Assembly (NCBI GenBank): GCA_043803745.1
Contig: JAZDJS010000048.1
Span: forward strand, 4,385 to 68,384
Direction: 5' to 3'
DNA from: an archaeon
GTDB lineage: Archaea > SpSt-1190 > DYHY01
Length of the DNA: 64,000 nt
Shown: piece by piece, positions 1,715-39,851 of the stretch
How positions within the stretch are numbered: the stretch's first letter is position 1
Layout: the number at the start of each line of letters is the position of its first letter
The notes under the pieces: generated by a model
What the model saw: the letters and a program-made list of their open reading frames with translations, nothing else
The model's database searches: none
Told to the model about the DNA's origin: nothing
Made by a program: the position numbers and the translations under genes

Positions 1715-4700
1715 CTAGAACAGACCGGTCAGCCAATTCCAGAAATTCTGGAAGGCTCCGAACAGTCCAGTGAAGAATCCAGTCTGTCCGACAGGCGGCT
1801 GTTGTGGCGCTATTGTAGTGGTCGTCGGAACAGTTGTTGTAATTTCCGGCTGCTGCTCTTCTTGCCCCGGTTGTCCCTGGCTTCCTGCGCCTTTTGTGCT
1901 CTTCACGCGCGTCGAAGCAGTATAGTCGATTCCGCCAATCCTTGCTGTGAACTGAACCGTGCCGTCTGCTCCTTCAGGAACAAGCACAGTTGCAGTCAGC
2001 GTCTGTTCCTCGCCCGATTTGAGCAGTCCAGTTGAGCCAATGTCAACGCGCCATCCTTCCGGAGCGCTTGAGGTTATGTCGGTCCCGTAGTCAGCGCAGG
2101 TTCCATTCACGCTCAGGGTCACTAGGATTTCCGCGAAATCGGTGCTTGTTTCGACGTCGGCTGGCGCGGAAAGCGCAAAGTCAGGCCTGCATGTTTCTGC
2201 GGGCGCGCCTCCGCTTCCTCCGCTGCCTCTCACCGGAGGCGCTGGCGGAGAATACGCGGCTGCCGCATAGTACGAAGCCTTGGTGGCGCGGAACGTGCAG
2301 TAGCCGTCGGCAACGATGCAGGTTGTCGGGTCAAGTATCCCGTCCTGGGTCCGTCCCCCGCTCGGGGAAAGGGAACGGAATATTGAAAGCGTTCCCCCGT
2401 TGTGCGCAGGTCCGACGTAAATCGAAATCTGCATTGACGGGCTGAAATATAGTCCCTGCCCGACGATTCCCCATTGGAACGCTCCGACGGAACTGTAGTT
2501 GGCGGGCAGTCCCGAAGCGCTGAAGCTGAAAATATCCGCCGTAAAATCGCGGATATCTACGGGCAAACCGTCCCCGCGGGTTATCTCGGTTCCGTCTTCC
2601 GGATATGCATAGGAATCTCCGGAGCCTATTGCCAGGTTCGTGAAAACGGTTGTTCCCGCAACCCTGACCAGTGCAGGTCCGTCGCTTGAACCGTAGTTAT
2701 AGCAGTAGAGTTTCCCTTCAGGCGAGAAAGAGAGTTCAAAACACATCCCTCCCGGATATCCGGTGTCCGGATTCGTATATGAAAGGAATGTCACGTTGCC
2801 GTTCGACGGGTCTATCTTGTAAATCGAGCCGTCAGACGAGCTGTCCATCGCGCCAATTCCAGCTCCTAACGCAACCGAGTCCGAGCTAGACCCCTCAGTG
2901 TCGCCGCTTCCATAAAGGATTCCGCTGGGCGAGAAAGCCAAACCCTGCGTGAAGAATTCCCTTCCAGTCTGGATTTCAGCATTTTCAACCTCGCCGAAAA
3001 GCTCCTGGATTATCGCTACGAAGGTCAGCTCTCCAGTTTCCTTGTTAATTGTGTAGAGCCGCGAACCGGAGTTTTGGGGGGTGCTTGACCCCTTCACCCC
3101 ATAGAATGTTCCATCGGGCGCGAACGCTATCGCGTTCATTCCCCCATACCAGTATTCATCACCATAGGATATCTTGGCGATTTGCGAAACATCCCCGGTT
3201 GTCGTGTCGACAGTCGCGAGATAGTCGTTGCAAGGGGATGGTACGTGACCGTGCGCAGCCATGTAAAGAATTCCGTTCCCGTCGAAGGCGAACGCGTAAG
3301 GCCTGATTATTGAGGAGTCGTTTAGGTCGTTTAGCTGAACCTTGAAAGACTCCGCGCCAGTCAGCGGGTCGAGCGTGTAGAGATTGTCTTCATATCCCTT
3401 GTATATCGTTCCGTCAGGCGCCACCGCGAAGGCGGTGTTCTGAGCAGTCCATCCATTTATCGGATAGTTGTATCCGACAAGATGGCCTTGTCCTGCCGCG
3501 AAAGTCTCGAAAAGCCCGAACTCGTTAAGAAGGTCCAGGTTCTCAGTCGTAGTTTCAATCGGCTTGGCGAACGTCGTGCAAGTCTCGTCAAGGCACCAGA
3601 AGGAGAAGTCGACCTTTCCGCTGACATTGCCAATTATTTCCGCAAAGCTAGCTGTTCCCCACCAGTTGCGCCAGGCCTTGATTACTTCGCCCTCCGCTTC
3701 CGCTCCGAGAAGCTCGTTGTCAATTATCTTGTTCTTTTCGACAACTACTCCGGTCGAATCAGCGGAATAAATTCCAACATTGTTCGAATCTATCGTGTTG
3801 TCGTGGATTTTGACTTCGCTCATCTCGTAAAGGTCAATTCCGGAACGGTCGTCCTTCCGCACGCCGTTCGAACTTATCTCGTTCCCGTAAATCTCGAAAT
3901 TCGTTCCGTCGTGGAGGTCCAGGCCCTTTGCAAAGTAGGAAATCTTCACGTTCCGGAGGACGATGTTGTCGCTTTCCGAGGAATAGATTCCACTCCCTTC
4001 AGAAGAGGTCTCTTCGAACTCCGCCGATATTGAAAAGGGCTCTATTATGTCCAGCCCCTTGAACTGGAGTATGCTAAGTCCTTCTATTGTCGCATTGCCG
4101 GAATAGATGCTTATGCCGTTTTCTCCGGGAAGCACGCTGATAATCGAATTGTCAACTCCCGCGCCAATTAATCTCAAATGCTTCTGAATCAAAACCGACT
4201 CGCGCCAGGTCCCTTCAGTCAGTTCGACTGTTCCGTGTTCGTCAACGAGAGTCGTTCCTTCGCTGATTGTCGCTTTCGGCGTCACAATGACGTAGGGCGT
4301 TGAAATCCAGTAAAAAGCGGTTTCAGGATCGTCGATTTTCACCGAGGAAATCTTCGTCATCAGGTTTTCCGAGCCTTCGCTCTCAAGGGAGCAGATTTCC
4401 GCCGTGCCGCAGACAGCCCCTCCGTCGGTTCCGTAGATTGTCCCGGGCTTGGACATGATGACTGCTTCGTCATATGTCTCGTTGTCAACGACATAGACGC
4501 TCCCCGCGGGGAACATTGCGTCAACCCCGGCTTGGACTGCGTTGAACGCGTCATAGCCCCAGGTATGGCCGTCGTTGCCGCAGGGTCCCTGCTCTAAGAC
4601 GTCGGGAGTGACTTGGGTGTTCGGGTCGCAGTATTCCTTGCTCACATAGACTGAGCTAGGCCTGTTGTCGTAATGGACGAAGGAACTATCGGTTGTGTTT

Positions 4701-5476
4701 TCCTCGGTAAATGTCGCGGAGTTTCCGGCAGTGTCAGTTACAGTGAACTCGAACGGGACAATTCCGGCAGGGTCTTCTGGATACATCTGGATGAATCCGT
4801 CGATTTCCGGGTCAATCCGCAGGGCTCCGCCAACGCTTGCAAGGCGGCCTTCGATTGTGAATGTTCCTAGTGTGAACTCTTCAGATGAGCCGGCTGCCTT
4901 GACATAGACATATGTCCATGGGCGGGCAAAGGAGGAATTGCCTGAAAAGTCGGAATTGATTCCGACTTGCTCGAATGTCGGGGCGGTCATGTCGAAAGTG
5001 ACGCTTGAACCGTCGGTCGTGGTCGTGACGGGATAAGTTTGAACTAGCAGGGAGCTGACTAGGGGAAGCGCATATGGGTATATCGAGAAAGGAACAATCC
5101 CTTCGGCATCCGATGATTGCATCGCATATTGGGAAACGTATGAAAAGCCGATTGCGGTTCCTTGGTTGGCGATTTCCTGAACAATCGGAACGGAGTGTCC
5201 GGCGATTGTAACTTCAGTCGTCGTTTCGTTAAGGAGCTGATCGGATGAGAACCTCAAAGTGACATTGTCGCCGACTTGCGCGTAAAGGGGGTTCTGGTTG
5301 TCGGAACTTATTCCAACTGGGAAAATGAATGGACCTGGAACCGGGGTCGCCATTGCCGGGGCAATCATCAGCGCTAAAATCGCGAAAATTGCGCAAAGCG
5401 CGGAAAGAAAACCGCCGAACCCCTTCTTGCCTGAAAAACCCGCTTCGTTGTCATAGTTCTGTTTCTTGTTTGTCAT
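1715..5476 (-). CDS. giant secreted surface protein (signal/anchor N-terminus, beta-propeller-like and parallel beta-helix repeats, Thr-rich stalk, conserved aromatic C-terminal tail)
   Basis: 1253 aa. The N-terminus has a basic stretch then a hydrophobic helix (ALCAIFAILALMIAPAMA). Internal N-x-I/V-x-x-N repeats are typical of right-handed beta-helix. The C-terminus is TTTVPTTTTIAP...GFFTGLFGAFQNFWNWLTGLF. Confidence 0.8.
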   Translation of the reverse strand: MTNKKQNYDNEAGFSGKKGFGGFLSALCAIFAILALMIAPAMATPVPGPFIFPVGISSDNQNPLYAQVGDNVTLRFSSDQLLNETTTEVTIAGHSVPIVQEIANQGTAIGFSYVSQYAMQSSDAEGIVPFSIYPYALPLVSSLLVQTYPVTTTTDGSSVTFDMTAPTFEQVGINSDFSGNSSFARPWTYVYVKAAGSSEEFTLGTFTIEGRLASVGGALRIDPEIDGFIQMYPEDPAGIVPFEFTVTDTAGNSATFTEENTTDSSFVHYDNRPSSVYVSKEYCDPNTQVTPDVLEQGPCGNDGHTWGYDAFNAVQAGVDAMFPAGSVYVVDNETYDEAVIMSKPGTIYGTDGGAVCGTAEICSLESEGSENLMTKISSVKIDDPETAFYWISTPYVIVTPKATISEGTTLVDEHGTVELTEGTWRESVLIQKHLRLIGAGVDNSIISVLPGENGISIYSGNATIEGLSILQFKGLDIIEPFSISAEFEETSSEGSGIYSSESDNIVLRNVKISYFAKGLDLHDGTNFEIYGNEISSNGVRKDDRSGIDLYEMSEVKIHDNTIDSNNVGIYSADSTGVVVEKNKIIDNELLGAEAEGEVIKAWRNWWGTASFAEIIGNVSGKVDFSFWCLDETCTTFAKPIETTTENLDLLNEFGLFETFAAGQGHLVGYNYPINGWTAQNTAFAVAPDGTIYKGYEDNLYTLDPLTGAESFKVQLNDLNDSSIIRPYAFAFDGNGILYMAAHGHVPSPCNDYLATVDTTTGDVSQIAKISYGDEYWYGGMNAIAFAPDGTFYGVKGSSTPQNSGSRLYTINKETGELTFVAIIQELFGEVENAEIQTGREFFTQGLAFSPSGILYGSGDTEGSSSDSVALGAGIGAMDSSSDGSIYKIDPSNGNVTFLSYTNPDTGYPGGMCFELSFSPEGKLYCYNYGSSDGPALVRVAGTTVFTNLAIGSGDSYAYPEDGTEITRGDGLPVDIRDFTADIFSFSASGLPANYSSVGAFQWGIVGQGLYFSPSMQISIYVGPAHNGGTLSIFRSLSPSGGRTQDGILDPTTCIVADGYCTFRATKASYYAAAAYSPPAPPVRGSGGSGGAPAETCRPDFALSAPADVETSTDFAEILVTLSVNGTCADYGTDITSSAPEGWRVDIGSTGLLKSGEEQTLTATVLVPEGADGTVQFTARIGGIDYTASTRVKSTKGAGSQGQPGQEEQQPEITTTVPTTTTIAPQQPPVGQTGFFTGLFGAFQNFWNWLTGLF

Positions 5477-5714: not shown

Positions 5715-8700
5715 ATGGGGAAGTTTAGCAAGATTTTAGGACTAGTTGTAGTTTTGTCTGTTTTCGCAGCGTTTGCAGTCGGAGTCGGATTTTCGGTAAC
5801 GGAGCTGAAATATGACGACGGGACAATAGGTTATAGTGGGACTTGGCTTGATTCCGATGGCCAATACGTTGTCAAGTTCGCGCCCGCGCACAAGGGGGAA
5901 ATAACCTGGCTAGGGGCATATGTTTCAAAGGACGGCTCGGACGACGAATGGTGGGCTGGACTTTTGAATTCCGACTATTCAACACTTTCCCCATATGTAC
6001 TGAATTACATTTCGGGCTCAAGCGCCTGGAGATATGCAAGCTTCTCAACAGTCGTTTCCTCCCCATTCTATGCGGCAGTGAAACTCCAGGGATCTGATGA
6101 CGCCCGCCTAGGAAAGGACGGTTCTTCAACTTCAGGCTATAGCGAAGCCAACACAGGTTCCGGCTGGTCAGCGGTCTCAGGGAACCACATGATCCGCGCA
6201 TATATCGACTATTTCCCCGAAGCTTCAAGCATTTCCTTCTCGGAAAACCCGACTTCTGCAAGTTCAGTTACCGTTTATGCGACTTGCACCGAATACGATT
6301 CCGACGACGATGTTGACCACGCCCAAGTCCGGGTTGACGGCGGCTCCTGGGACTGGATGTCCGCTTCCGACGGGAGCTTTAATGAGAACTCCGAGAACGC
6401 ATACAAAACAATTTCGATTTCAGGTCTTTCTGATGGCGACCACACTGTCGAGGTCCGCTGCGAAGACGAGAACAGCAACTGGGGCGACCCGGTTTCGGCA
6501 ACCCTGACAAAGGGGACTTCAGACACGACCGCTCCGGTGACAACCGATGATGTTCCTTCCGGATGGAAGAACACGGATGTCACGGTGACTTTCACCTGCA
6601 CAGATTCGGGCTCTGGCTGCGACAAGGTCTATTACACAACTGACGGGAGCGAACCTGATTCCGGCTCCTCCTATGTCGATTCAGCCTCAAGCTGGCAGTT
6701 CACAATGTCCTCAGAAGGGCAATACACAATCAAATACAGGGGAGTTGACGTTGCAGGGAACTGGGAAACGACGAAGACTGCAGCAAACCTCCTTAGCATT
6801 GACAAGACCGCTCCGGGAATTTCCGGGGCTGCGACAGAAGGCCCTAACGGATTGAATGGCTGGTATGTCTCGGACGTCACGGTAAGATTCGACTGCACAG
6901 ACGACCTTTCCGGTCCGGTTGAATCCTTCTTTGACATTTTCATGACAACTGACGGAGCTGGCCAGTCGGCTTCCGGAACCTGCTACGACCTTGCGGGGAA
7001 TTCCGCAGGAACGACTGTCTCGAACATTGACATTGACAAGACAGTTCCAAGCATTTCCGGGACAGTCAGCCCCTCGCCAAACGGGGATGGCTGGAACAAG
7101 GAGGACGCTACAGTCCATTTCGACTGTTCCGACGCAACTTCCGGAATCTCCTCTTGCACATCAGACGTTCTCGTTACGACTGAAGGAGAAACTCTCGTTA
7201 CCGGGACTGCAATTGACAATGCGGGCAACTCCGCGACAGCCGACATAACGGTAAAACTTGACAAAACGGATCCGGTCACGGAAAGCTCATTTAACCCGGC
7301 AGCCCCAAACGGGCTTAACGGCTGGTATGTTACCGAACCGGAAATAACCCTGACTTTCACAGACGCAGACCCGTCCTCAGGGAAAAAATGGACGAAATAC
7401 AAGGTCAATGGCGGAGATGCTGAGACATATTCGGCTCCGTTCGCGCTTCCCGAAGGAATCCACGAACTGAAATTCCACTCAAAGGACAGGGCGGACAACA
7501 CTGAGGGCTGGAACACAATCTCGAACATAAAGGTCGACACGACTGCTCCCGAAGCGCCCGAATTCTCGGGAACTTCCCCATACTATGACGGAGACGGGGA
7601 CTTTTACGTTTCCTGGAGCTCTTCGAGCGATGCGACATCGGGAATAAGGGGCTATGCCCTATACCGGTCGCTTAACGAAGGGTCGTTCGTCCTCATGGGA
7701 GTTTTCCTCGACACAACCTACCACGAGCAAAGCCCCGGAATCGATTCAAGATACGGCTACAAGGTTTCCGCAATTGACAATGCGGGGAACGAAGGGGCTC
7801 AGAGCGAAGAGAAGGTTGTCGTAGTCGACAGGATGGACCCGACAGCGCCGCTTATGCACGACCTTCCGCCATATATCGGCGAAACAGAGGTTACTGCCTC
7901 CTGGGACCATGCGGCTGACACCGGCGTCTATCCTTCCGGAATATCGACATATGATGTCTATGTGAATAGCGCACTTGACGGCAGCACAACATATCCGGAC
8001 AACGACTATTACAAGGACTCGCTTGCGAACGAGCAGACCTACCTTTTCAAGACGAATGCCTGGGACAAATCAGACCCTGCAAACGAGGGTCCGATGTCAA
8101 ACGAGGTCGGGACAACTGTCGACCTGACTGACCCGGTCACAACCGCGATTTTCAACCCGGAGACTCCGAACGGGAACAACGGCTGGTATATCTCAAGACC
8201 GTCGATAACTCTTTCGGCAGTTGATTCGGGCTCGGGCGTCTACAAGACATATTATTGCTTCGACCAGATTGCTTCTGGAACCAGTTCCCTTGATGTTGAG
8301 ACTGAGGAGACTGAGGAGACTGGGGACAACGAGACTGTTGAAGGCGACCGCTGGCATCCGACAACAACAACGACTGTCGCACCAACACCATGCACGCCAT
8401 CCGCCGAATACACAGGACCCTTCCAGATAGACACGGAAGGGACCAACTATGTCAGGTTCTATTCGGTTGACAACGTCGGGAATGTGGAAACGGTCAATGA
8501 AGTCTCATTCAAGCAGGACCTTAACGAGCCGACGAACCAGTGGTTTTTCCTCAATGGAGGCAATTACTATTCGGACGACTCTGACGTTGGAGCGTGGTAT
8601 GATTCCGGGAAGGATACAAGCAAAGGCAGCGGACTTGACTATTGCGTAATTGACTGGGGAGACGATTCCCAGACAACTGTCTCGAAATCAAGCAACCACG

Positions 8701-10568
8701 TGCACCACACATATGCCGACGGCGAATATACCGCAAGCTATGTCTGCTATGACAATGCGGGGCACTCGAGCGAGCCTGAAACCGACGAGATTTTCGTTGA
8801 CACGGTAGACCCGGCAACATCAGCTGCGCTCAATCCGGCGGAGCCGGACGGGGACAACGGCTGGTATGTTTCTGAGGTTGAAGTCGCTCTGACTGCAACA
8901 GACCCGGAGCCAGCATCGGGAATATACCGGACCTATTACTGCGTTGACCAGATTCCAGATGGGAGCGGCGACGACGCAATTGAAGGAACTGAAGTTGACG
9001 GCGACTGGGGATGGCATCCTCCAAGGCCTTGCACTCCGAACACAAGATATACGCATCCGTTCGACGTCTCTGATGACGGGACGAACTATGTGCGGTTCTA
9101 TTCCGTTGACAAGGCTGGAAACGAGGAAGAAACCCAGACAATCTCTTTCAAGCAGGACGAGACAAACCCGGAAACCGACCACTCGGTTTCCCCAAGGAAC
9201 CCTGACGGGGACAACGAATGGTATGTCTCGGAAGTTGACGTGACTCTTGACGCTGACGATGACACATCCGGCGTCTACCAGACACTCTACTGCGTGAAGC
9301 AAAGCCTTGCCTGCGAAGAAGAGGAAGAAGGGGATGGCGAACCGGAACCAACTTGGTGGCATCCCCCTGCGCCGGAAGAGCCTGAATGCGAACCGGACAC
9401 TCTCTATGACGGGACTTTCACAGTGCTTCTAGAAGGGAAGACCTCAGTAACCTACATGTCAATTGACAATGCGGGAAACGAGGAGGAAATGCACACCTTC
9501 TCGTTCAAGCAGGACTGGACCGACCCGACAACGACAGCGACAACCGACCCGTCCGAACCGAACGGGAACAACAGCTGGTTCAACTCAACAGTTCAGTTCA
9601 ACCTTACCGCTGTTGACGGGCGTGCTGAAACGCCTTCCGAACCGGAAGGGGAAACAATCGAATCCGGCTGCTTCTGGTGGTGGTGGCAGCATCCGCCTGC
9701 GGATGGAGAAGTTCCATGCACCTCTGGAGTCCACAGAACGTACTATTGCATTGACTATGGCGCGGAAACTGGGGTTGTCGGCTGCTCAGCCGAATCCGAG
9801 GATTGCGGGGCATGCTACCCGAGGACAAGATACACGGAGCCTCTGAACCTGACCTATGAGGGACTGCAAACAATCCGGTTCTTCTCGGTTGACAAGGCCG
9901 GTAACCGCGAGGGAATCCAGGAACAGGGAATCTGGATTGACACGGTTGCCCCGGAAAGCACAATAACTGCTCCGGCGAACATGTCGAACTATTCGGCAAT
10001 CGGGACCCTTGTAATCAGGGGGAACAGCTCGGACGAGACAAGCGAAATCTTCGCAGTCGAAGTTGTTGTCAAGAACGCGGGAGGCTATGCGCTGATGAAC
10101 TGGACCGCTTCCGAAATTAACGCGACAGGGGACTGGAATTTCACCTGGACGCCTGGCGGATACGGGACCTACTACATAAGCTCGAGGGCAATCGATGCTG
10201 CGGGTAACTTTGAAACGGAGCCGGAAGAGATTGTTGTCTACTTCCCGGAGCCGCCTCTCAAGGTGCAAACCTATGGCGGGTTCTACGTAAGGACCTGTGG
10301 CAACGGGGTCTGCAACGCGAACATCGGCGAGAACGAACGGACCTGTCCGGAAGACTGCAAGGCTCCTGAAGAGGAAGAGCCTCTTGAGAACGCCGAAGAG
10401 CTAGTCAACCAAGTGACGACAACGACGGTCCAGCCGACGACAACGACGACGGTCCAACCCCAGCAAGGGACGCTTAACCCGAGACCGGGAATGCTCCCAA
10501 CAGGACGGTTCGTCCTTTTCGACCTGGCGGACCAGTTCTGGCAGTGGCTGTCTGGTTTGATGCAGTAA
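5715..10568 (+). CDS. giant secreted adhesin-like protein with at least 8 tandem NGWY-type Ig-like repeats, an FN3-like module, acidic stretches, a Cys motif, a Thr-rich stalk and a conserved aromatic C-terminal tail
   Basis: 1617 aa with an N-terminal signal peptide (MGKFSKILGLVVVLSVFAAFAVG). The unit P(N/D)G-x-NGWY-x-S-x-V-x-V-x-(F/L)-x-(C/A)-x-D-x-x-SG-(V/I) recurs at least 8 times, as in OmpL47-type / chitobiase-C Ig-like domains. It is followed by CGNGVCNANIGENERTCPEDC, a TTTTVQPTTTTT stalk and ...FVLFDLADQFWQWLSGLMQ. Confidence 0.85.
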   Translation: MGKFSKILGLVVVLSVFAAFAVGVGFSVTELKYDDGTIGYSGTWLDSDGQYVVKFAPAHKGEITWLGAYVSKDGSDDEWWAGLLNSDYSTLSPYVLNYISGSSAWRYASFSTVVSSPFYAAVKLQGSDDARLGKDGSSTSGYSEANTGSGWSAVSGNHMIRAYIDYFPEASSISFSENPTSASSVTVYATCTEYDSDDDVDHAQVRVDGGSWDWMSASDGSFNENSENAYKTISISGLSDGDHTVEVRCEDENSNWGDPVSATLTKGTSDTTAPVTTDDVPSGWKNTDVTVTFTCTDSGSGCDKVYYTTDGSEPDSGSSYVDSASSWQFTMSSEGQYTIKYRGVDVAGNWETTKTAANLLSIDKTAPGISGAATEGPNGLNGWYVSDVTVRFDCTDDLSGPVESFFDIFMTTDGAGQSASGTCYDLAGNSAGTTVSNIDIDKTVPSISGTVSPSPNGDGWNKEDATVHFDCSDATSGISSCTSDVLVTTEGETLVTGTAIDNAGNSATADITVKLDKTDPVTESSFNPAAPNGLNGWYVTEPEITLTFTDADPSSGKKWTKYKVNGGDAETYSAPFALPEGIHELKFHSKDRADNTEGWNTISNIKVDTTAPEAPEFSGTSPYYDGDGDFYVSWSSSSDATSGIRGYALYRSLNEGSFVLMGVFLDTTYHEQSPGIDSRYGYKVSAIDNAGNEGAQSEEKVVVVDRMDPTAPLMHDLPPYIGETEVTASWDHAADTGVYPSGISTYDVYVNSALDGSTTYPDNDYYKDSLANEQTYLFKTNAWDKSDPANEGPMSNEVGTTVDLTDPVTTAIFNPETPNGNNGWYISRPSITLSAVDSGSGVYKTYYCFDQIASGTSSLDVETEETEETGDNETVEGDRWHPTTTTTVAPTPCTPSAEYTGPFQIDTEGTNYVRFYSVDNVGNVETVNEVSFKQDLNEPTNQWFFLNGGNYYSDDSDVGAWYDSGKDTSKGSGLDYCVIDWGDDSQTTVSKSSNHVHHTYADGEYTASYVCYDNAGHSSEPETDEIFVDTVDPATSAALNPAEPDGDNGWYVSEVEVALTATDPEPASGIYRTYYCVDQIPDGSGDDAIEGTEVDGDWGWHPPRPCTPNTRYTHPFDVSDDGTNYVRFYSVDKAGNEEETQTISFKQDETNPETDHSVSPRNPDGDNEWYVSEVDVTLDADDDTSGVYQTLYCVKQSLACEEEEEGDGEPEPTWWHPPAPEEPECEPDTLYDGTFTVLLEGKTSVTYMSIDNAGNEEEMHTFSFKQDWTDPTTTATTDPSEPNGNNSWFNSTVQFNLTAVDGRAETPSEPEGETIESGCFWWWWQHPPADGEVPCTSGVHRTYYCIDYGAETGVVGCSAESEDCGACYPRTRYTEPLNLTYEGLQTIRFFSVDKAGNREGIQEQGIWIDTVAPESTITAPANMSNYSAIGTLVIRGNSSDETSEIFAVEVVVKNAGGYALMNWTASEINATGDWNFTWTPGGYGTYYISSRAIDAAGNFETEPEEIVVYFPEPPLKVQTYGGFYVRTCGNGVCNANIGENERTCPEDCKAPEEEEPLENAEELVNQVTTTTVQPTTTTTVQPQQGTLNPRPGMLPTGRFVLFDLADQFWQWLSGLMQ

Positions 10569-21612: not shown

Positions 21613-23439
21613 ATGAAAATAGGCCTTGAGATTCACCAGCAGCTGAAAACGAGCAAGCTGTTCTGCCGCTGCCCCTCGGTTCTCAGGGAGGTTAAGCCTG
21701 ACGTTATTGTCGAAAGGCGCCTCAGGGCCGTTGCAAGCGAAACCGGCGCCCGCGACATTACCAGCGAAACCGAGTTTGCAAAGGGCAGGAAATTCATCTA
21801 CCAGGCCTATTCGGACTCGACCTGCCTGATAGAAATTGACGAGGCCCCCCCGAAGGAAATCAACCCGGAGGCGCTCCAGATTGCCTGCACAATTGCTGGC
21901 GCCCTGAACTGCCGGGTCGTCCCGGAGCTCCACGTTATGAGGAAGGCGATAATAGACGGCTCGTGCCCCTCGAGCTTCCAAAGGACCGCGCTCCTTGCAA
22001 AGGACGGTTTTGTCGAGGCCCGTTCCGGAAAGAAAATCAGGATAGAATCGATTTGCATCGAGGAGGATGCGGGGAGGATAATTGCATCAGACAATTCAAG
22101 CGCAACTTTCAGGGTCGACCGCCTCGGGATTCCTCTCGTTGAGATAACGACCGCTCCGGAAATCGAATCGCCGGAAGAAGCGCGGGAGGTCGCGGAACGG
22201 ATTGGAACGGTTCTCAGGCTTACCGGAAAGGTTGTCCGGGGACTTGGCTCGATAAGGCAGGACCTCAACGTCTCGGTTCCCGAAGGAGCGCGTGTCGAGA
22301 TAAAGGGCGTCCAGCAACTCGACCAGATTCCCGAACTTGTCCGAATGGAGGCTGAGCGGCAGAAGAGCCTTGCAGGGATTGCCAAGAAATATTCCGACAG
22401 GATAATTGCAATTGAGCGGGCAGGCGGCCCAAAATCTGCGGAAGTAACTGAGGTTTTCCTTGAAACCGGATGCAAACTGCTGGCTGGCTTGGAAATACAC
22501 GCGGCAATCCTTCCAGGTCTTGCGGGGATACTTGACGAGACCCTCCACGAGGGAAAGCGTTTTGGAAAGGAGGTTGCGGAAAGGATGCGCATCCTGACAA
22601 CTGCACGGGGCTTCCTGCACACTGACGAACTTCCCGCATATGGCGTCACAGCCGAAGAGGTCCGGGATTTGCGAGCCGCAACCGGCGCGGGCGAAAATGA
22701 CCTGATCTGCCTCGTCGCTGGAAAGGGACCCGAAGCACACCTTCCGCTGATGCCTGTTGTTGAAAGAATACTTCTCTCGAATCTCGGGGTTCCCGGCGAG
22801 ACGCGGAAGGCGAATCCCGACTGCTCGACAAGCTTCCTGAGGCCCATTTCCGGGAGCTCGCGCTTCTATCCGGAAACTGACGTTGCCCCGGCGCAAATGG
22901 GCCCCGTTAGAGCGGATTCGGTTGAATCCCCGGAGGAACGGATGGGGAAGCTGGAAAAGCTCGGGCTCCCTGAAAAGCTTGCGAAGGGACTGCTCCTTTC
23001 GGAAAACTATCCCCTCTTTCTCCTTGCGCTTGAAAAGCGCGTGCAGCCGGTTCTTGCGGCAACAATTGTCGAGGAAACTCTTCCGTACCTGAGAAGAAAG
23101 GGGATTGAAATCGACCGGGTTCCGGACAGCGACTATTCGGTGCTGTTTGAACTTGTTTCTTCGGGAAAGCTCCCCCGAGAAGGAATTCCTGACGCAATGG
23201 AGAAACTTGCGAGACACGAGGGGATTTCAAAACTCGCGGAAGCCGGGCGAGTTTCCGAAGCGCAGGTCGCCGGATTCGCAAGAAAGCTCATCTTTGAACG
23301 CAGGGAGTACATTCTCAAGGAGGGCGCGGAACGCGCAATATCCGGCCTGATGGGTGAACTGATGAAGGAATTTAAGGGGAAATTCTCCGGGACGCTGCTG
23401 AAGGAAATTCTTTCGAAGGAGCTTCTTGGAAATGCCTGA
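21613..23439 (+). CDS. gatE: Glu-tRNA(Gln) amidotransferase subunit E
   Basis: 608 aa. It starts MKIGLEIHQQL...KLFCRCPS (GatB/GatE signature) with GatE-length insertions. Confidence 0.9.
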   Translation: MKIGLEIHQQLKTSKLFCRCPSVLREVKPDVIVERRLRAVASETGARDITSETEFAKGRKFIYQAYSDSTCLIEIDEAPPKEINPEALQIACTIAGALNCRVVPELHVMRKAIIDGSCPSSFQRTALLAKDGFVEARSGKKIRIESICIEEDAGRIIASDNSSATFRVDRLGIPLVEITTAPEIESPEEAREVAERIGTVLRLTGKVVRGLGSIRQDLNVSVPEGARVEIKGVQQLDQIPELVRMEAERQKSLAGIAKKYSDRIIAIERAGGPKSAEVTEVFLETGCKLLAGLEIHAAILPGLAGILDETLHEGKRFGKEVAERMRILTTARGFLHTDELPAYGVTAEEVRDLRAATGAGENDLICLVAGKGPEAHLPLMPVVERILLSNLGVPGETRKANPDCSTSFLRPISGSSRFYPETDVAPAQMGPVRADSVESPEERMGKLEKLGLPEKLAKGLLLSENYPLFLLALEKRVQPVLAATIVEETLPYLRRKGIEIDRVPDSDYSVLFELVSSGKLPREGIPDAMEKLARHEGISKLAEAGRVSEAQVAGFARKLIFERREYILKEGAERAISGLMGELMKEFKGKFSGTLLKEILSKELLGNA

Positions 23440-34475: not shown

Positions 34476-35831
34476 GTGGTGGTTCAGTTCATCGGGGAGC
34501 TGGGGCTTTCCGGAACTGAGCGGATAGAAGATGAGGCTGGGGCAAAGGAGCTCCTGGAAAAATATTACGGAGAACTCGAGATTGGGACGGAGTCTCCGGG
34601 ACGCGAGGCGGTCAAGACAATGGCTCTCCTGCAGTGGGGAGCGACCGCTGCGCCTGAGGAGGCCCGGAAGATTGCGGATTGGACTGATCCAACGAGGACC
34701 GTCAGGACGGGGAACGTCGGAGTGCAGGGGCTCCTTAGGAAAGGGGATCTGACAACTTCTGCGTCCTTTGCAATGGCTGAATGGGGACCGGTCGACACTC
34801 CCGCTGGATATTCCCCGCTGAGGATAATTAAGGGTGAGCTGGAAGGGGAATTCCTTCCTTTGGGAATAATCGGGCCGGACGGAAAGGGGCTGGGAGAATT
34901 TCTTGCAAGGAGGGCGCGCAGTTGGTATGAAAAAAAGCTCCCCTCGGGAGGCTTGCTGACTGCAGCCTTCCTGGAGGAGGGGGCTTTCTCGGAAGATGGC
35001 CTTTCCGGGAACTTGATGGCAGGACTTCCATATGCCTGTTCAGTTCAAGCCCAGGGCGGTTGTGTTTTCTGCCCCTTTGGGAAAGGGGAGACTGGAATAC
35101 CGACAGCGGAGGATTTCGGCTTTGCAGCAGTTGAGGCGGTCGGGAGGAACGGCGGAAGGACGACAATTACAATAACCGCAGGGAACACTGGCAGGCCGGA
35201 GCGGGGACTGGAACGGTATTTGCCGGTTCTTTCGGAAATACGAGAGAGGCTAATTGAGGCGGGACTGAAACCGCCCCCAATACAGCTTGAAGTCTCTCCG
35301 CCCAATTGGGAAGTGCTTGGCTATCTGGGAGTTGAGGAGCTTTTCGGGAAGCTCATTGAGCTCGGCGTCACATCGCTTATGCTCAATCCCGAGATTCCCA
35401 TAACGCCTGAAAACGCAAGGGAGCGGGAAGTTCGCCTAAAGTCAAAAGGCAGCATTCCGGAATCGGATTACCTCCGATCCTGGGAGCTTGCAAAGAAAAT
35501 GGATCTTGGAACGGCAGGCGTCCTAATCTGGGGCCTCGGAGGAGAGGCTGCGGATTATCGGGATTTCTCCGCCCTTGAAGCATACAAATCGGGCGTTGAT
35601 AAAATGGCATCAGTCGGAGCATATCCAGTCTCCCTCGCACTGAGGCCGCGGGGGGCGTTGATGGGAAAATACGCACCGCCTCCGTTGAAGGGGCAAGTCG
35701 AGCTTGTCATTTATTCGGCGAATGTGTGTGCTAAAGCGGGAATTTCCCCCCCTCCGGGCTGTTCAAAATGTTCGGCCTGCGGGCCTGACGGGGTTGCATA
35801 CGACCTTGCCTTGAAGGGGGAATTGAAATGA
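34476..35831 (+). CDS. hypothetical Cys-cluster protein (possible non-canonical radical-SAM/Fe-S enzyme)
   Basis: 451 aa with a GTG start. It has CSVQAQGGCVFCPFG (Cx7Cx2C followed by aromatics) and a C-terminal CxxCxxC-like cluster (CSKCSAC). A nearby ATG is out of frame, so the start is uncertain. Confidence 0.4.
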   Translation: MVVQFIGELGLSGTERIEDEAGAKELLEKYYGELEIGTESPGREAVKTMALLQWGATAAPEEARKIADWTDPTRTVRTGNVGVQGLLRKGDLTTSASFAMAEWGPVDTPAGYSPLRIIKGELEGEFLPLGIIGPDGKGLGEFLARRARSWYEKKLPSGGLLTAAFLEEGAFSEDGLSGNLMAGLPYACSVQAQGGCVFCPFGKGETGIPTAEDFGFAAVEAVGRNGGRTTITITAGNTGRPERGLERYLPVLSEIRERLIEAGLKPPPIQLEVSPPNWEVLGYLGVEELFGKLIELGVTSLMLNPEIPITPENAREREVRLKSKGSIPESDYLRSWELAKKMDLGTAGVLIWGLGGEAADYRDFSALEAYKSGVDKMASVGAYPVSLALRPRGALMGKYAPPPLKGQVELVIYSANVCAKAGISPPPGCSKCSACGPDGVAYDLALKGELK

Positions 35832-36211
35832 AGGGAGCCGTTCCGAAAAAGCTCGGACCGTATTCCCTGGGGGCCTCTGCCAGAGGCCTCTCTCTCTTTT
35901 TTTCCTCCGGGGAGACCGGAACTGACCCGAAAACAGGGAAGCTTGAGAAAGGGATTGCAGCGCAGGCTAGACGGACTCTTGAGAATATCGAGGCAATTCT
36001 CTTGCAAAAAGGGCTCTCCCGCAGGAACGTCGTGAAGGCAACTGTCTACCTGACCGATCTCCGGAATTTCGCGGAATTCAACGGAGTATACCGCAGGTTC
36101 TTCGGGGAATCTCTCCCGGCGCGGACGTGTGTCGGGGTGAGCGAACTTGTCGGCGGGGCTTTCGTAGAGGTAGAAGTTGTCGCGTCAAGGAAGGTTGGAA
36201 GATGGGATTAA
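35828..36211 (+). CDS. ridA: RidA/YjgF family reactive-intermediate deaminase
   Basis: 127 aa with the typical YjgF signature (...ATVYLTDLRNFAEFNGVY...GVSELVGGAFVEVEVVA). Confidence 0.85.
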   Translation: MKGAVPKKLGPYSLGASARGLSLFFSSGETGTDPKTGKLEKGIAAQARRTLENIEAILLQKGLSRRNVVKATVYLTDLRNFAEFNGVYRRFFGESLPARTCVGVSELVGGAFVEVEVVASRKVGRWD

Positions 36212-37218
36212 TTGACCTGAGATATGGCACTAATCCAATTCCCCTTGACAATGCGGCAATTGCAAGTATTGCTGCAGAAGCGGTGCGGAAACTGAACGAA
36301 TATCCCGACCAAAGCTGCACGAAAATCAAGCGGGCAATTGCGAAAAGCCTCGGCAGGGGTTTTTCTTCCGGCAACGTCCTGGTTGGGAATGGGTTGGACT
36401 CGGTGATAAACACTATTGCCGAGTCGGTCCTCGGAGGTAGGAAGGGAAACGGCGCGGTAGCGGTGCCGTCGTTCTACGTTTTCTCGGCGGCAATGAGGAA
36501 GCTGGGGGCGCGGGTGCTGGAGTTCCCGCTTTCGGAGGGGACTTTCTCTTTGGATGTCCGTAAGTTCTCCGATGAGATGAAGCAGCGCGGCACAGACCTT
36601 TGCTTCCTCGCCAACCCCAACAATCCGACGGGGAACCTCCTGATACAAGACAAGAGCGGCTTGCTGAAACTGGCCGGCTCCTGCAAGCTCTTGATTGTCG
36701 ACGAGTGCTATTACGGCTTCTGCAAGCAGACATTTGTCAGGGAGACGCTCGAGCTCGAAAATCTCGTCGTCCTAAGGAGCCTCTCGAAATCGTACGGCCT
36801 GGCAGGCCTGCGCCTCGGATACGCAGTCTCTCGGAAGGAGAACATAGAACGCCTTGGCAGGGTCGCCTCCGCCTGCAGGCCGTTCGACGCCGGAACAATT
36901 TCCCAGGAAATTGGCACGTGGGCAGTGGGAAGGAAGAACCGTCTCGCGGAGTTCGCGCAACTGAAAGACGATTTCCTCCGGCTGCTCAGGGATTCCTGCG
37001 GAGCAGAGGTCAGTGGCACAGAGACCTCCTTCCTTCTTCTGAAGGTCGCAGACTCGGAGGAATTCGGTAAGAGACTGGCTTTGGAAGGGGTCCTTGTCAA
37101 CACCCTCGCACCCTACAAGATGGGCGAGAGATATGTGCGGATAGGGATACCTCCTCGCAGACTTTTCGCAAAGGTCGCAAAGGCTGTAGTACGGGCGACA
37201 AACAATAATAAAGGGTGA
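36202..37218 (+). CDS. hisC: histidinol-phosphate aminotransferase-like class II aminotransferase
   Basis: PLP-lysine region LRSLSKSYGLAGLRLGYAV and LIVDECYYGF are present. The start is trimmed to MGLIDL. Confidence 0.75.
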   Translation: MGLIDLRYGTNPIPLDNAAIASIAAEAVRKLNEYPDQSCTKIKRAIAKSLGRGFSSGNVLVGNGLDSVINTIAESVLGGRKGNGAVAVPSFYVFSAAMRKLGARVLEFPLSEGTFSLDVRKFSDEMKQRGTDLCFLANPNNPTGNLLIQDKSGLLKLAGSCKLLIVDECYYGFCKQTFVRETLELENLVVLRSLSKSYGLAGLRLGYAVSRKENIERLGRVASACRPFDAGTISQEIGTWAVGRKNRLAEFAQLKDDFLRLLRDSCGAEVSGTETSFLLLKVADSEEFGKRLALEGVLVNTLAPYKMGERYVRIGIPPRRLFAKVAKAVVRATNNNKG

Positions 37219-37225
37219 GGAAAAA

Positions 37226-39028
37226 GTGAACAGAAAAATGGCGAACGATTCATTCCAGCCCCCGAGGGGGACGCGCGACCTCCTCCCGAAGGAGCTTTCG
37301 GTGAGGAACAGGATTTGCGAAATACTTTCCGGGACTGCCGAAACGTACGGCTTTGGGCCGATAGACACCCCGGTTTTCGAGAATTTCGACTTCCTTGCGA
37401 AAAAGTCCGGGCCCGAGGTGAAGGAGCAGATATACTATTTCAAGGACAAGGCGGGGCGCGAGCTCGGGCTCAGGTTTGATTTCACCGTCCCCATTGCAAG
37501 GCTTGTCATGAACAACCCCCAGCTGCCGAAACCTCTCCGGCTTTACGTCCTTGACAAGGCATGGAGATATGAGGAAATCTCGGCAGGCAGGTTCAGGGAG
37601 TTCTCCCAGTTGGACGTCGAGATACTCGGCTCGAAAGAGCTTATTGTCGATGCCGAGACAATCGCCGTCGGCGTCGCCCTCCTGACCGTTTTCGGGATCC
37701 CGAAAATAAAGGTGAAGATAAACAACAGGGAAATCCTTGACGGCTTTGCCAAAAGCATCGGGATTTCCGAGGGCTCTGCTCGGGACGATTTCTTCAGGAC
37801 AATTGACAAAAGGGAGAAGCTTTCCGAATCGGCGTTCCGGGAGGCGCTCGGGAAGCTGGGGCTTTCCGAGGAAACCGCAGGGCAGGTTTCGGAATATTGC
37901 GGCCTTTCCGGAGAGGCCGGGGATGTGATCAAGCGGGCTGAAAAGCTGCTCAACCAGAATTCCTTGATTTCCGGCGGGATCGAGAAGCTGAAGAAACTTT
38001 TCAGCCTCCTCAAGAATTACGGGGTTGAGAAATACTGCGAGCTTGACCTCTCGATTGCAAGGGGGCTGGATTATTACACTGGCATCATCTTCGAGGTCAA
38101 GGCGGGGAACTACGGGCTTTCGATTATCGGCGGCGGCAGATATGACAAGCTCATCGGGCTTTACTCGGGAGAGGAAATGCCTGCGACCGGCTTTGCAATG
38201 GGCATTGACCGGCTTTACGAGCTTCTTGGGAAGGAAGGGCGGCTGCCGGCATCGGGCTCGGGAAGCAAGGCGCTCGTGGTTCCGATCGGGGAACCCGCGC
38301 TTCCAAAGGCAATCGAGCTTGTCCAGGGAATCAGGCTTGCCGGGGTCAACTCGGAAATAGACGTCATGGGGCGGAGCGTTGGGAAGAACCTCGAGTTCGC
38401 CGACAAGGCGAAGATGCCTTTTGCGGTAATCGTCGGGGAGAAGGAGCTTTCGGCGCGCAAGGCAACGGTGAAGGATCTCCGGACCGGGGAAAGCGAGGCT
38501 GTGGATTTCGCGCAAGTCCCTTTCTACATCGCCGGGAAACTGAGCAGGGATTTCGAGGTTCCGGGCAAGTCCGAAGAGAAAACTTCTGCAATCGCGGGTT
38601 CGGGGGATTTCAAGGCGCGCCTCCACACGGCAGACCACATCCTTACGGGCGTTCTTGGTCAGCTTGCAAAGGGCTTCGAGGAACGGGCGCTGGAATTTGC
38701 GGAAACCCACTGCAGGTGGGATTGCGTCTCGGATGACGACTTGAGGAAGCTGAAGGCGGAAATCGAGAAAAGCGTGAACGAGATTATTTCTCGGAATCTG
38801 CAGGTTTCGCAAAAGGAGATTCCGAGGGCCGAAGCTGAGGAAAAATTCGGTAAGCTCAGGGCCCCAAAGGAGCTTGAGGAAATAACCGTCTACGAAATAG
38901 CCGGCTTCAACGAGCTTCCTTGCGGAGGCCCCCACGTCCGAAGCACGGCGCAGGTCGGCAAGTTCAAAATCCTGAAAATTGAGAAGAAAGGGGCGAAAGC
39001 CTGGTCGATAAGGTATACTGTTGAATAA
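37226..39028 (+). CDS. hisS: histidyl-tRNA synthetase fused to a C-terminal AlaX-S/tRNA_SAD-like editing domain
   Basis: It has the N-terminal HisRS-specific RGTRD motif, motif 2 (WRYEEISAGRFREFSQLDVE), motif 3 (GGGRYDKL) and an anticodon-binding domain. The last 150 aa or so carry HTADHIL (HxxxH) and CGGPH (CxxxH), as in AlaRS/AlaX editing domains. Confidence 0.8.
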   Translation: MNRKMANDSFQPPRGTRDLLPKELSVRNRICEILSGTAETYGFGPIDTPVFENFDFLAKKSGPEVKEQIYYFKDKAGRELGLRFDFTVPIARLVMNNPQLPKPLRLYVLDKAWRYEEISAGRFREFSQLDVEILGSKELIVDAETIAVGVALLTVFGIPKIKVKINNREILDGFAKSIGISEGSARDDFFRTIDKREKLSESAFREALGKLGLSEETAGQVSEYCGLSGEAGDVIKRAEKLLNQNSLISGGIEKLKKLFSLLKNYGVEKYCELDLSIARGLDYYTGIIFEVKAGNYGLSIIGGGRYDKLIGLYSGEEMPATGFAMGIDRLYELLGKEGRLPASGSGSKALVVPIGEPALPKAIELVQGIRLAGVNSEIDVMGRSVGKNLEFADKAKMPFAVIVGEKELSARKATVKDLRTGESEAVDFAQVPFYIAGKLSRDFEVPGKSEEKTSAIAGSGDFKARLHTADHILTGVLGQLAKGFEERALEFAETHCRWDCVSDDDLRKLKAEIEKSVNEIISRNLQVSQKEIPRAEAEEKFGKLRAPKELEEITVYEIAGFNELPCGGPHVRSTAQVGKFKILKIEKKGAKAWSIRYTVE

Positions 39029-39851
39029 CTGCAACAAAAAGAATAAAAGCAAGCGCCGTCTGCCCTGGGCGATGGAACTTGTCAAGCTATTCCGGAACAT
39101 AAAGGAGAATTTCTTTTTCTCGGCGGTTTTCCTTGCAACCCTCGTCGGGGGCATCCTTGCAATGATCTACAAGCCGCTCCTTCCCGAAGTCGAAATCCTG
39201 AAGGGCACGTTCTGGCTTTTCGGCCTTTCCCTCCAGGCAACGGTGATAATCTTGTGGATAGGGGGCTACCTGCTCTACAGATGGAACCTCGGGAAAAGAA
39301 AGAACAGCACCCAGCTTGTCTGGGGGGTTTCATTCCTGCTCTACTCAGTTGTCTTCATTGGGATGGCCCTGCAGGCCCTTGGATTTGGGTTCGCTGACGC
39401 CAAACTCCCCTGGATTTTCTTCGTTTACAGGCAGTTCATGATCTTGTGGCTTGCCGGAATTTATTGGGGGCTTGCCGGAATTGTTTTCGCAAAGGAGAAC
39501 AGACTTGCCCGGATTCTGCCGACGGCGGCAATACTCCTCATTGGCTATGGGATTTTCGCAAACGGGCTCTTCATTGTCAAGGATGTGGAGTACACGATGT
39601 ACAGCTTCCTTTACCTGCTGTTCGTTCCGGTGTGCTTCATCCTTTCCCGGATTTTCTGGAAATATGCCCAGCTTGCCTCGGCAACCTTCGCAAGATACCT
39701 TTCAATCGGCTTTGCGGGCATCGGCATAACATATCTTGCATGGGCGCCCTGGCACAAGACAACCTTCTATTTCGTCTGGTTTTTCCTGTATGTCCTTTCG
39801 CTGATTCCGCTTCTTGTCGGCTTCCTTGGCGCGGGGCAGAAGAGCACTTAG
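39021..39851 (+). CDS. polytopic membrane protein (hypothetical)
   Basis: 276 aa with about 8 TM helices rich in W/F/Y. Confidence 0.5.
   Translation: MNNCNKKNKSKRRLPWAMELVKLFRNIKENFFFSAVFLATLVGGILAMIYKPLLPEVEILKGTFWLFGLSLQATVIILWIGGYLLYRWNLGKRKNSTQLVWGVSFLLYSVVFIGMALQALGFGFADAKLPWIFFVYRQFMILWLAGIYWGLAGIVFAKENRLARILPTAAILLIGYGIFANGLFIVKDVEYTMYSFLYLLFVPVCFILSRIFWKYAQLASATFARYLSIGFAGIGITYLAWAPWHKTTFYFVWFFLYVLSLIPLLVGFLGAGQKST

Follow-up and report, generated by a model that had tools for sequence, protein, structure and literature searches.

Fusion of histidyl-tRNA synthetase with a predicted AlaX-S-type deacylase domain in an archaeal contig, and recurrent pairing of this domain with hisS and tRNA-His genes

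Homologous deacylase domains (tRNA_SAD, 'Edit-AT') are carried by two class II synthetases, AlaRS and bacterial or eukaryotic ThrRS, where they edit in cis. The free-standing AlaX-S (P. horikoshii PH0574; 1WNU, 1WXO, 1V7O) is a Ser-specific deacylase without tRNA specificity (PMC11260482). An AlaX-S-like module is also found on Plasmodium TrpRS, a synthetase without a known editing need, where it serves tRNA binding and aminoacylation and has lost all four zinc ligands (PMC3680381). Here we describe a gene for histidyl-tRNA synthetase (HisRS) that continues in frame into such a domain. It lies in a 64,000-nucleotide stretch of archaeal contig JAZDJS010000048.1 (assembly GCA_043803745.1), referred to below as the window. 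What is new here is the attachment in cis of an AlaX/ThrRS-type editing domain to a new synthetase partner, HisRS. Like AlaRS and ThrRS, the fusion protein combines this domain with a class II synthetase; in contrast to them, the partner is HisRS, and the domain is not integrated but trails from the extreme C-terminal end on a flexible linker of considerable length. We put the probability that this domain (mini-AlaX in the following) is a proofreading deacylase of the histidine-charging system, acting here in cis on tRNA-His, at roughly 0.5.

The complete hisS::mini-alaX fusion gene occupies window positions 37226..39028 (+) and encodes 600 residues from a GTG start codon, with the stop codon TAA at 39026-39028. 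The start chosen by NCBI is the ATG at 37238, which gives the 596-residue protein MFH0962194.1, named 'MAG: histidine--tRNA ligase [archaeon]' (MAG, metagenome-assembled genome). This protein is the sole member of its own 90% cluster, and its exact architecture occurred a single time among ~15 billion proteins. The HisRS class II catalytic domain spans residues 15-330 (37268..38215, +; Pfam tRNA-synt_His PF13393, E 4e-55) and is followed by the HGTP_anticodon anticodon-binding domain at residues 348-435 (38267..38530, +; PF03129, E 1e-14). Scored over the whole protein, the NCBIfam hisS model TIGR00442 reached 383.7 bits, above its equivalog cutoff of 286.75, and the HisZ model 236.5 bits, below its cutoff of 271.65.

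The initial annotation had recognized a full set of HisRS hallmarks in this open reading frame (ORF), and all the motifs that it quoted were located: RGTRD at residues 14-18, motif 2 (FREFSQLDVEILG) at 123-135, and GGGRYD at 302-307. RGLDYYTG (279-286) and the HisA-like LRFDFTVPIAR (LRxDxTVP motif) are also present in the catalytic domain. Across 40 unfused relatives, 86 alignment columns show a conservation of 93% or more; the window HisRS deviates at 6 of them, none of which is a charged or motif residue. The HisRS half thus keeps all its hallmark residues and is, as judged from its sequence, predicted to be an intact, working synthetase. A relaxed HisRS active site in the fused enzymes was considered and rejected, because the window enzyme showed no such changes and the differences in the others follow phylogenetic distance. 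A stop-free antisense ORF of 634 residues (window 37250-39154, -) spans the whole fusion gene and is longer than the gene itself. It is taken as a shadow of the high content of G and C at third codon positions (GC3) and not as a gene; its own homologues were not searched.

The C-terminal 137 residues (464-600; 38615..39025, +) form the predicted aminoacyl-tRNA deacylase domain of AlaX-S type (tRNA_SAD). Pfam tRNA_SAD PF07973 matched residues 553-590 with 41.2-43.6 bits (cutoff 24), and the NCBIfam AlaXM profile matched residues 465-599 (E 8e-22 to 4e-23). The AlaXM score of 78-82 bits is below the cutoff of 300 and the alignment covers only model positions 96-233 of 234, so the domain is not an AlaX-M. 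It is the minimal editing core of the AlaX-S subtype, without the N-terminal beta-barrel of AlaX-M and without the C-Ala/DHHA1 domain of AlaX-L. The same parts are missing from AlaX-S, which the domain also resembles in length (~140-157 residues in AlaX-S), zinc ligands (HxxxH and Cx(G)xH), and fold; the two are 23-24% identical, and AlaX-S stands free whereas the window domain shares a polypeptide with HisRS.

Both zinc motifs, as defined in PMC12003907, are present: HTADH (HxxxH; H467 and H471) at residues 467-471 (38624..38638, +) and CGGPH (CxGxH; C566 and H570) at residues 566-570 (38921..38935, +), separated by 94 residues. In a profile alignment, these four ligands correspond to H9, H13, C116, and H120 of AlaX-S (residue numbers from PMC3680381). 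A search of the PDB with the last 160 residues returned the archaeal AlaRS editing domain (2zze) and P. horikoshii AlaX-S (1v4p/1wnu), with ThrRS weaker. The AlphaFold2 model of the domain, built on 48 relatives, had a mean predicted local distance difference test score of 96.7. Foldseek matched this model to the AlaRS editing domain (2zzf/2zzg) and AlaX-S (1wnu/1v7o) with E ~1e-11 and TMq 0.85-0.87 (0.85 for AlaX-S). An identity as a ThrRS N2 editing domain was rejected, because both the fold match (E ~1e-6) and the profile match (thrS, E 4e-4; AlaXM, 4e-23) were weaker. The initial annotation had read HTADHIL...(~95)...CGGPHV as the zinc motif pair of AlaX, AlaRS, and ThrRS editing domains and had assigned the domain to the AlaX-S type. 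Both statements held when the C-terminal residues were searched with the profiles and aligned to the solved AlaX-S and AlaRS domains, and a loss of zinc ligands, which would have spoken against them, was not seen, as all four are kept.

The closest relatives of the domain are free-standing proteins of 138 residues (43-50% identical) from Micrarchaeota, Peregrinibacteria, Magasanikiibacteriota, Pacearchaeota, and metagenome contigs. In the largest subfamily of this mini-AlaX clade, which includes Bathyarchaeia and others (loci L011, L013-L029, and many of L047-L103), the HxxxH motif is replaced by QTAEH and the CxGxH motif by CKDPH. Asp takes the place of the zinc-motif Cys in 13 sequences, whose metal site is probably altered.

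The HisRS and mini-AlaX parts are in frame and not translatable as two proteins. They are connected by a 28-residue linker, GKLSRDFEVPGKSEEKTSAIAGSGDFKA, at residues 437-464 (38534..38617, +), and the stretch 38531-38630 contains no stop codon, no change of frame, and no ATG, GTG, or TTG in any frame. The extension of about 150 residues noted initially belongs to one uninterrupted ORF. The position that aligns with the start Met of the free-standing homologues is a Phe (TTC) in the fusion. The GC3 of the C-terminal domain (0.65) falls within that of the neighboring genes (0.61-0.73). On these grounds, two explanations were rejected: a frameshift or split gene, because there is a single ORF whose linker lacks a start codon, and a recent foreign insertion, because neither GC nor GC3 shows a break.

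An assembly or consensus error could also have merged an adjacent hisS and a downstream mini-alaX in this one metagenome-assembled contig. Such an artefact would fit the fact that the architecture is known from one sequence only, and adjoining gene pairs in the order hisS then alaXS do exist elsewhere (see below). However, the merging would need more than one change, namely the loss of a stop codon, an in-frame spacer, and a Phe codon replacing the start Met, and no compositional break is seen at the domain. Moreover, five independent N-terminal fusions show that a single polypeptide can accommodate the pair. We consider an artefact very improbable, and the architecture, a HisRS continued into an AlaX-S-type domain, is very probably real.

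The pairing of the mini-AlaX clade with hisS and tRNA-His is recurrent: the domain is fused to HisRS at either end, and its gene adjoins hisS in either order. A survey of other lineages, proposed with the initial annotation, recovered five proteins with the mini-AlaX domain at the N-terminus of HisRS, that is, in the polarity opposite to that of the window. One of them is the 587-residue P0004, encoded at locus L002 of assembly GCA_964408035.1. A scan of 1.84 billion representative sequences with the domain profile contributed two more among its best 150 matches, P0266 and P0255, the latter a fragment from a Woesearchaeota MAG, and a metagenome scan contributed L043 and L118. The other long matches among the best 150 were AlaRS and AlaX-M/L only, and no fusion to any non-Ala synthetase except HisRS was found among them. 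The N-terminal fusions share the domain order of ThrRS, with the editing domain first, then the catalytic core and the HGTP anticodon domain.

The survey also yielded separate, adjoining genes. The order alaXS then hisS was observed in L049 (4-bp gap; metagenome scan), in L123-125 (P0131; three contigs; 17 bp), and in L128-130 (P0247; three contigs of a bacterium; 6 bp), one of which lies beside a sigma-70 gene. L128 belongs to assembly GCA_964619495.1. In the order of the window, P0152 and P0244 are encoded immediately downstream of hisS (L127, 13 bp; L131, overlapping). The pairings of P0131, P0247, P0152, and P0244 emerged when the free-standing proteins most closely related to the fused domains were looked up. 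The hisS cutoff was passed by all five full-length linked HisRS and by two hisS genes adjoining mini-alaX; P0255, as a fragment, was left out of this comparison. In four loci of one neighbor cluster (among them L041, 2546-3832), a gene resembling class IIb synthetases of the Asp/Asn type adjoins that of a more distant SAD protein (27-29% identical, ~300 residues, with an extra C-terminal part).

The two halves of L002 have their closest counterparts in unfused proteins. Its HisRS half is 85% identical to P0086, at whose locus the mini-AlaX domain is missing, and its mini-AlaX domain is 71% identical to the free-standing P0131. In rough neighbor-joining trees of both halves, the fused or linked members are scattered among the unlinked ones. 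The sister of the window HisRS is unfused as well. This HisRS, P0002 on locus L001, is the nearest one known to us in the comparison (69% identical), and it lies in the same gene order as in the window: aminotransferase, hisS, membrane protein, MFS transporter, HSP20. P0002 has only a short tail of acidic character beyond the anticodon-binding domain, and 33 bp separate it from the gene that follows. Neither a mini-AlaX domain nor a remnant of it was found downstream of the L001 hisS, where a 107-residue ORF belongs to the membrane protein. Taken together, the unfused counterparts of the L002 halves, the scatter in the trees, and the unfused L001 indicate that the pairings are separate events and not one inheritance. 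Because the syntenic sister is unfused, the fusion in the window is specific to its lineage, which supports the recent gene fusion suggested in the initial annotation. The linker looks like an extension of the acidic, Pro-rich C-terminal tail that is present in the unfused sister. The membrane-protein gene after hisS in L001 (7413-8487) is split in the gene calls into two overlapping ORFs at a stretch of nine A's, which may reflect a frameshift or a sequencing error.

A second link, independent of hisS, is provided by the tRNA genes. ARAGORN detected ten tRNA genes in the 131 loci (628 kb), and 7 of these 10 were tRNA-His(GTG). In L049 (531-2378), the order is tRNA-His, 18 bp, alaXS, 4 bp, hisS. 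In L012/L050 (the same Magasanikiibacteriota contig; L012 3923-4441), tRNA-His ends 26 bp before mini-alaX, and no hisS is present within 4 kb; it is this adjacency without a nearby hisS that makes the link an independent one. At larger distances, tRNA-His lies 1.2-1.6 kb upstream of the fusion in L118 (1315-4707) and of the gene pair in L123/L124 (L123 2746-5760). Cross-editing of Ala on tRNA-His via a G:U pair was rejected, because five of the tRNA-His genes have fully Watson-Crick acceptor stems and an encoded G-1:C73. Throughout the seven tRNA-His genes, G-1:C73 is encoded and the acceptor stem is free of G:U pairs.

We compared the pocket residues by a profile alignment to AlaX-S, read against the columns of the mini-AlaX family; this comparison is by alignment only. 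The window domain has Glu (in FEERALEF) at the position equivalent to Thr30 of PH0574, where most clade members have Thr or Ser. Sokabe et al. (2005) reportedly found that Thr30 of PH0574 recognizes the serine hydroxyl. Position 4 of HxxxH is acidic throughout the clade, with Asp in the window domain and Leu in AlaX-S. The position of P. horikoshii AlaX-S Glu145, which is that of E. coli AlaRS Arg693, is occupied by Ser in the window domain (AWSIRY). In AlaRS of E. coli, R693 reads G3:U70 (PMC11260482). The equivalent Arg, a mark of the tRNA(Ala)-specific editors (AlaRS editing domain, AlaX-M/L), is not found in the window domain in the hidden Markov model alignment. Finally, the Tyr of ITVYEI (window 38882-38899), ten residues before the zinc-binding Cys, was aligned by HMMER to a Tyr of S. 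aureus ThrRS (VTLYSQGDFTDL-CRGVHV). This Tyr is invariant in ThrRS editing domains and replaced by V/I/L/T in AlaRS-type ones (PMC12003907), and it is said to disfavor zinc binding. It is thus a ThrRS-type feature not shared with AlaX-S, and a minority one within the clade, where it occurs in 2 of the 11 hisS-linked and 7 of the 102 unlinked domains.

The zinc motifs also bear on whether the domain is catalytic at all. As a non-catalytic appendage for tRNA binding, it would have a precedent in apicomplexan TrpRS, whose AlaX-like domain does not edit (PMC3680381). The first motif is indeed eroded in some hisS-linked members: its first His is Q or E in L002, L123, L131, and P0255, and its second His is Arg in L131. 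In contrast, none of the four zinc ligands is lost in the window domain, and the glycine of CxGxH is also retained, so the Plasmodium TrpRS precedent, with all four ligands lost, is less apt. The Cys and the last His are, in addition, invariant across the mini-AlaX clade. We therefore regard a purely tRNA-binding role as improbable.

The mechanism that we propose for the proofreading deacylase is modeled on its homologues. The C-terminal tail of HisRS would be extended, via the flexible linker of ~28 residues, into a mini-AlaX deacylase that would hydrolyze wrongly acylated tRNA, with the histidine-charging system as its presumed client. By analogy with the domains of AlaRS and bacterial ThrRS, which edit in cis, it would check the acceptor end of the tRNA-His that HisRS is releasing. 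With a tether of 28 residues and a dimeric HisRS, the domain would be able to reach tRNA bound to either subunit. Homology would suggest Ser or a similarly small and polar non-cognate amino acid as the default substrate, but the pocket departs from that of P. horikoshii AlaX-S at the positions described above.

The same sequence features could be accommodated by a generic trans-editing factor acting on Ser-tRNA(Ala/Thr), for which HisRS is no more than an anchor. The linkage would then reflect co-expression, stability, or the use of HisRS as a dimeric, tRNA-affine scaffold, with no role on tRNA-His. The characterized AlaX-S lacks tRNA specificity and could thus act on any tRNA wherever it is tethered, and Ser instead of Arg at the R693 position fits a relaxed choice of tRNA. 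The active site of the HisRS partner is ordinary; in the comparison with the 40 unfused relatives, no relaxation was found in the window HisRS half. The clade consists mostly of free-standing members that are not encoded near hisS: of the 114 loci from the two unbiased scans, 3 were hisS-linked, against a rough chance expectation of ~0.15 (two neighbors among ~1,500 genes). Within the CxGxH subfamily, no residue separates the hisS-linked from the unlinked domains, and other differences are merely phylogenetic. What such a factor leaves without a reason is the repeated pairing with HisRS alone, in either polarity and either gene order, the absence of fusions to any other non-Ala synthetase among the best 150 matches, and the position of mini-alaX directly after tRNA-His genes where hisS is absent. 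We consider the tethered generic editor a serious rival to proofreading of tRNA-His, if an unlikely one.

Several of these observations, namely the lack of tRNA specificity in AlaX-S, the ordinary active site, the many free-standing members, and the lack of a distinguishing residue, weigh against a proofreading role on tRNA-His, as does the closest relative of the window HisRS, which does without the domain. To our knowledge, HisRS has no misacylation problem and is not known to edit. In the literature, we found no paper reporting HisRS editing or a HisRS editing domain, and a synthetase catalogue lists this type of editing domain for AlaRS and ThrRS only, not for HisRS (PMC11580382). On the other side, HisRS is the sole non-Ala synthetase partner, it is joined in both polarities and both gene orders, and tRNA-His genes are adjacent, which together favor a role in histidine charging. 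The recurrence of the pairing, including fusions of opposite orientation, makes a functional link to histidine likelier than the accidental parking of a tRNA(Ala) editor. As no paper was found on the pairing of mini-AlaX with hisS and tRNA-His, this association is apparently undescribed.

A broader version of the proofreading proposal can be put forward tentatively. It is quite possible, though somewhat less likely than not, that the whole AlaX-type clade of 138 residues is a dedicated tRNA-His deacylase (encoded by itself, as part of tRNA-His/alaX/hisS operons, or as an N- or C-terminal fusion with HisRS) that has spread through DPANN, the Candidate Phyla Radiation, and other uncultured lineages and removes a non-cognate acyl group. 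This group could be a histidine-like metabolite produced by the neighboring radical-SAM and aminotransferase genes. The conserved neighbors of the free-standing members showed only lineage-specific synteny.

In the window, a HisC/CobD-like class I/II aminotransferase gene (36202..37218, +; TIGR01141 175 bits, below cutoff) ends 8 bp before the start of hisS. A Rid-family deaminase gene (RidA; TIGR00004, above cutoff) is packed with it directly upstream of the fusion (35828-37218). Further upstream, a variant radical-SAM-like protein is encoded at 34476..35831 (+), a distant homologue of the MSMEG_0568-family genes (22% identity, E 1e-8), and an MFS transporter gene lies downstream of the fusion. 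RidA, the aminotransferase, and the transporter around the fusion resemble a small amino-acid-metabolism cluster. In several archaeal lineages, variant radical-SAM genes of the MSMEG_0568 family (NF045502/TIGR04043) also closely precede hisS or alaX-hisS, and they often follow tRNA-His (L002 226-1326; L123 2917-3933; L126 2109-3215). The sister locus L001 lacks such a gene.

Such surroundings are known from other AlaX-family deacylases, which occur in metabolic clusters (BesG, AlfB; beside His, Cys, or Thr biosynthesis genes) and, as may hold for the window, are tied to the metabolism of one amino acid. AlaX genes co-located with histidine biosynthesis genes number 65, and members of the family can be specific for unusual amino acids (PMC13149037). 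By analogy, the use of AlaX as a marker of amino-acid clusters (PMC13149037) would fit the radical-SAM-like, RidA, HisC-like, and MFS context of the fusion. Unlike the window domain, these deacylases stand alone, and none has been reported as fused to or paired with hisS or tRNA-His.

The window contains no other SAD, AlaRS, or ThrRS genes, and no tRNA or Rfam matches were obtained in it. At 21613-23439 it encodes GatE (GatB_N with a GAD insert, and GatB_Yqey), which indicates the archaeal indirect route to Gln-tRNA. Two giant beta-helix/Ig-like surface proteins of 1,253 and 1,617 residues are encoded at 1715-5476 (-) and 5715-10568 (+), respectively.

HisRS is counted among the synthetases that are regarded as accurate enough without editing, and the AlaX/ThrRS-type domain has been catalogued only on AlaRS and ThrRS. 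If the mini-AlaX domain does proofread tRNA-His, HisRS would join the synthetases that need editing, and histidine decoding may be subject to a source of error, at least in uncultured archaea and bacteria with small genomes. Alternatively, a borrowed synthetase may be what directs minimal AlaX proteins to a tRNA. In both cases, the answer is relevant to the recruitment of editing modules in the evolution of the synthetases.

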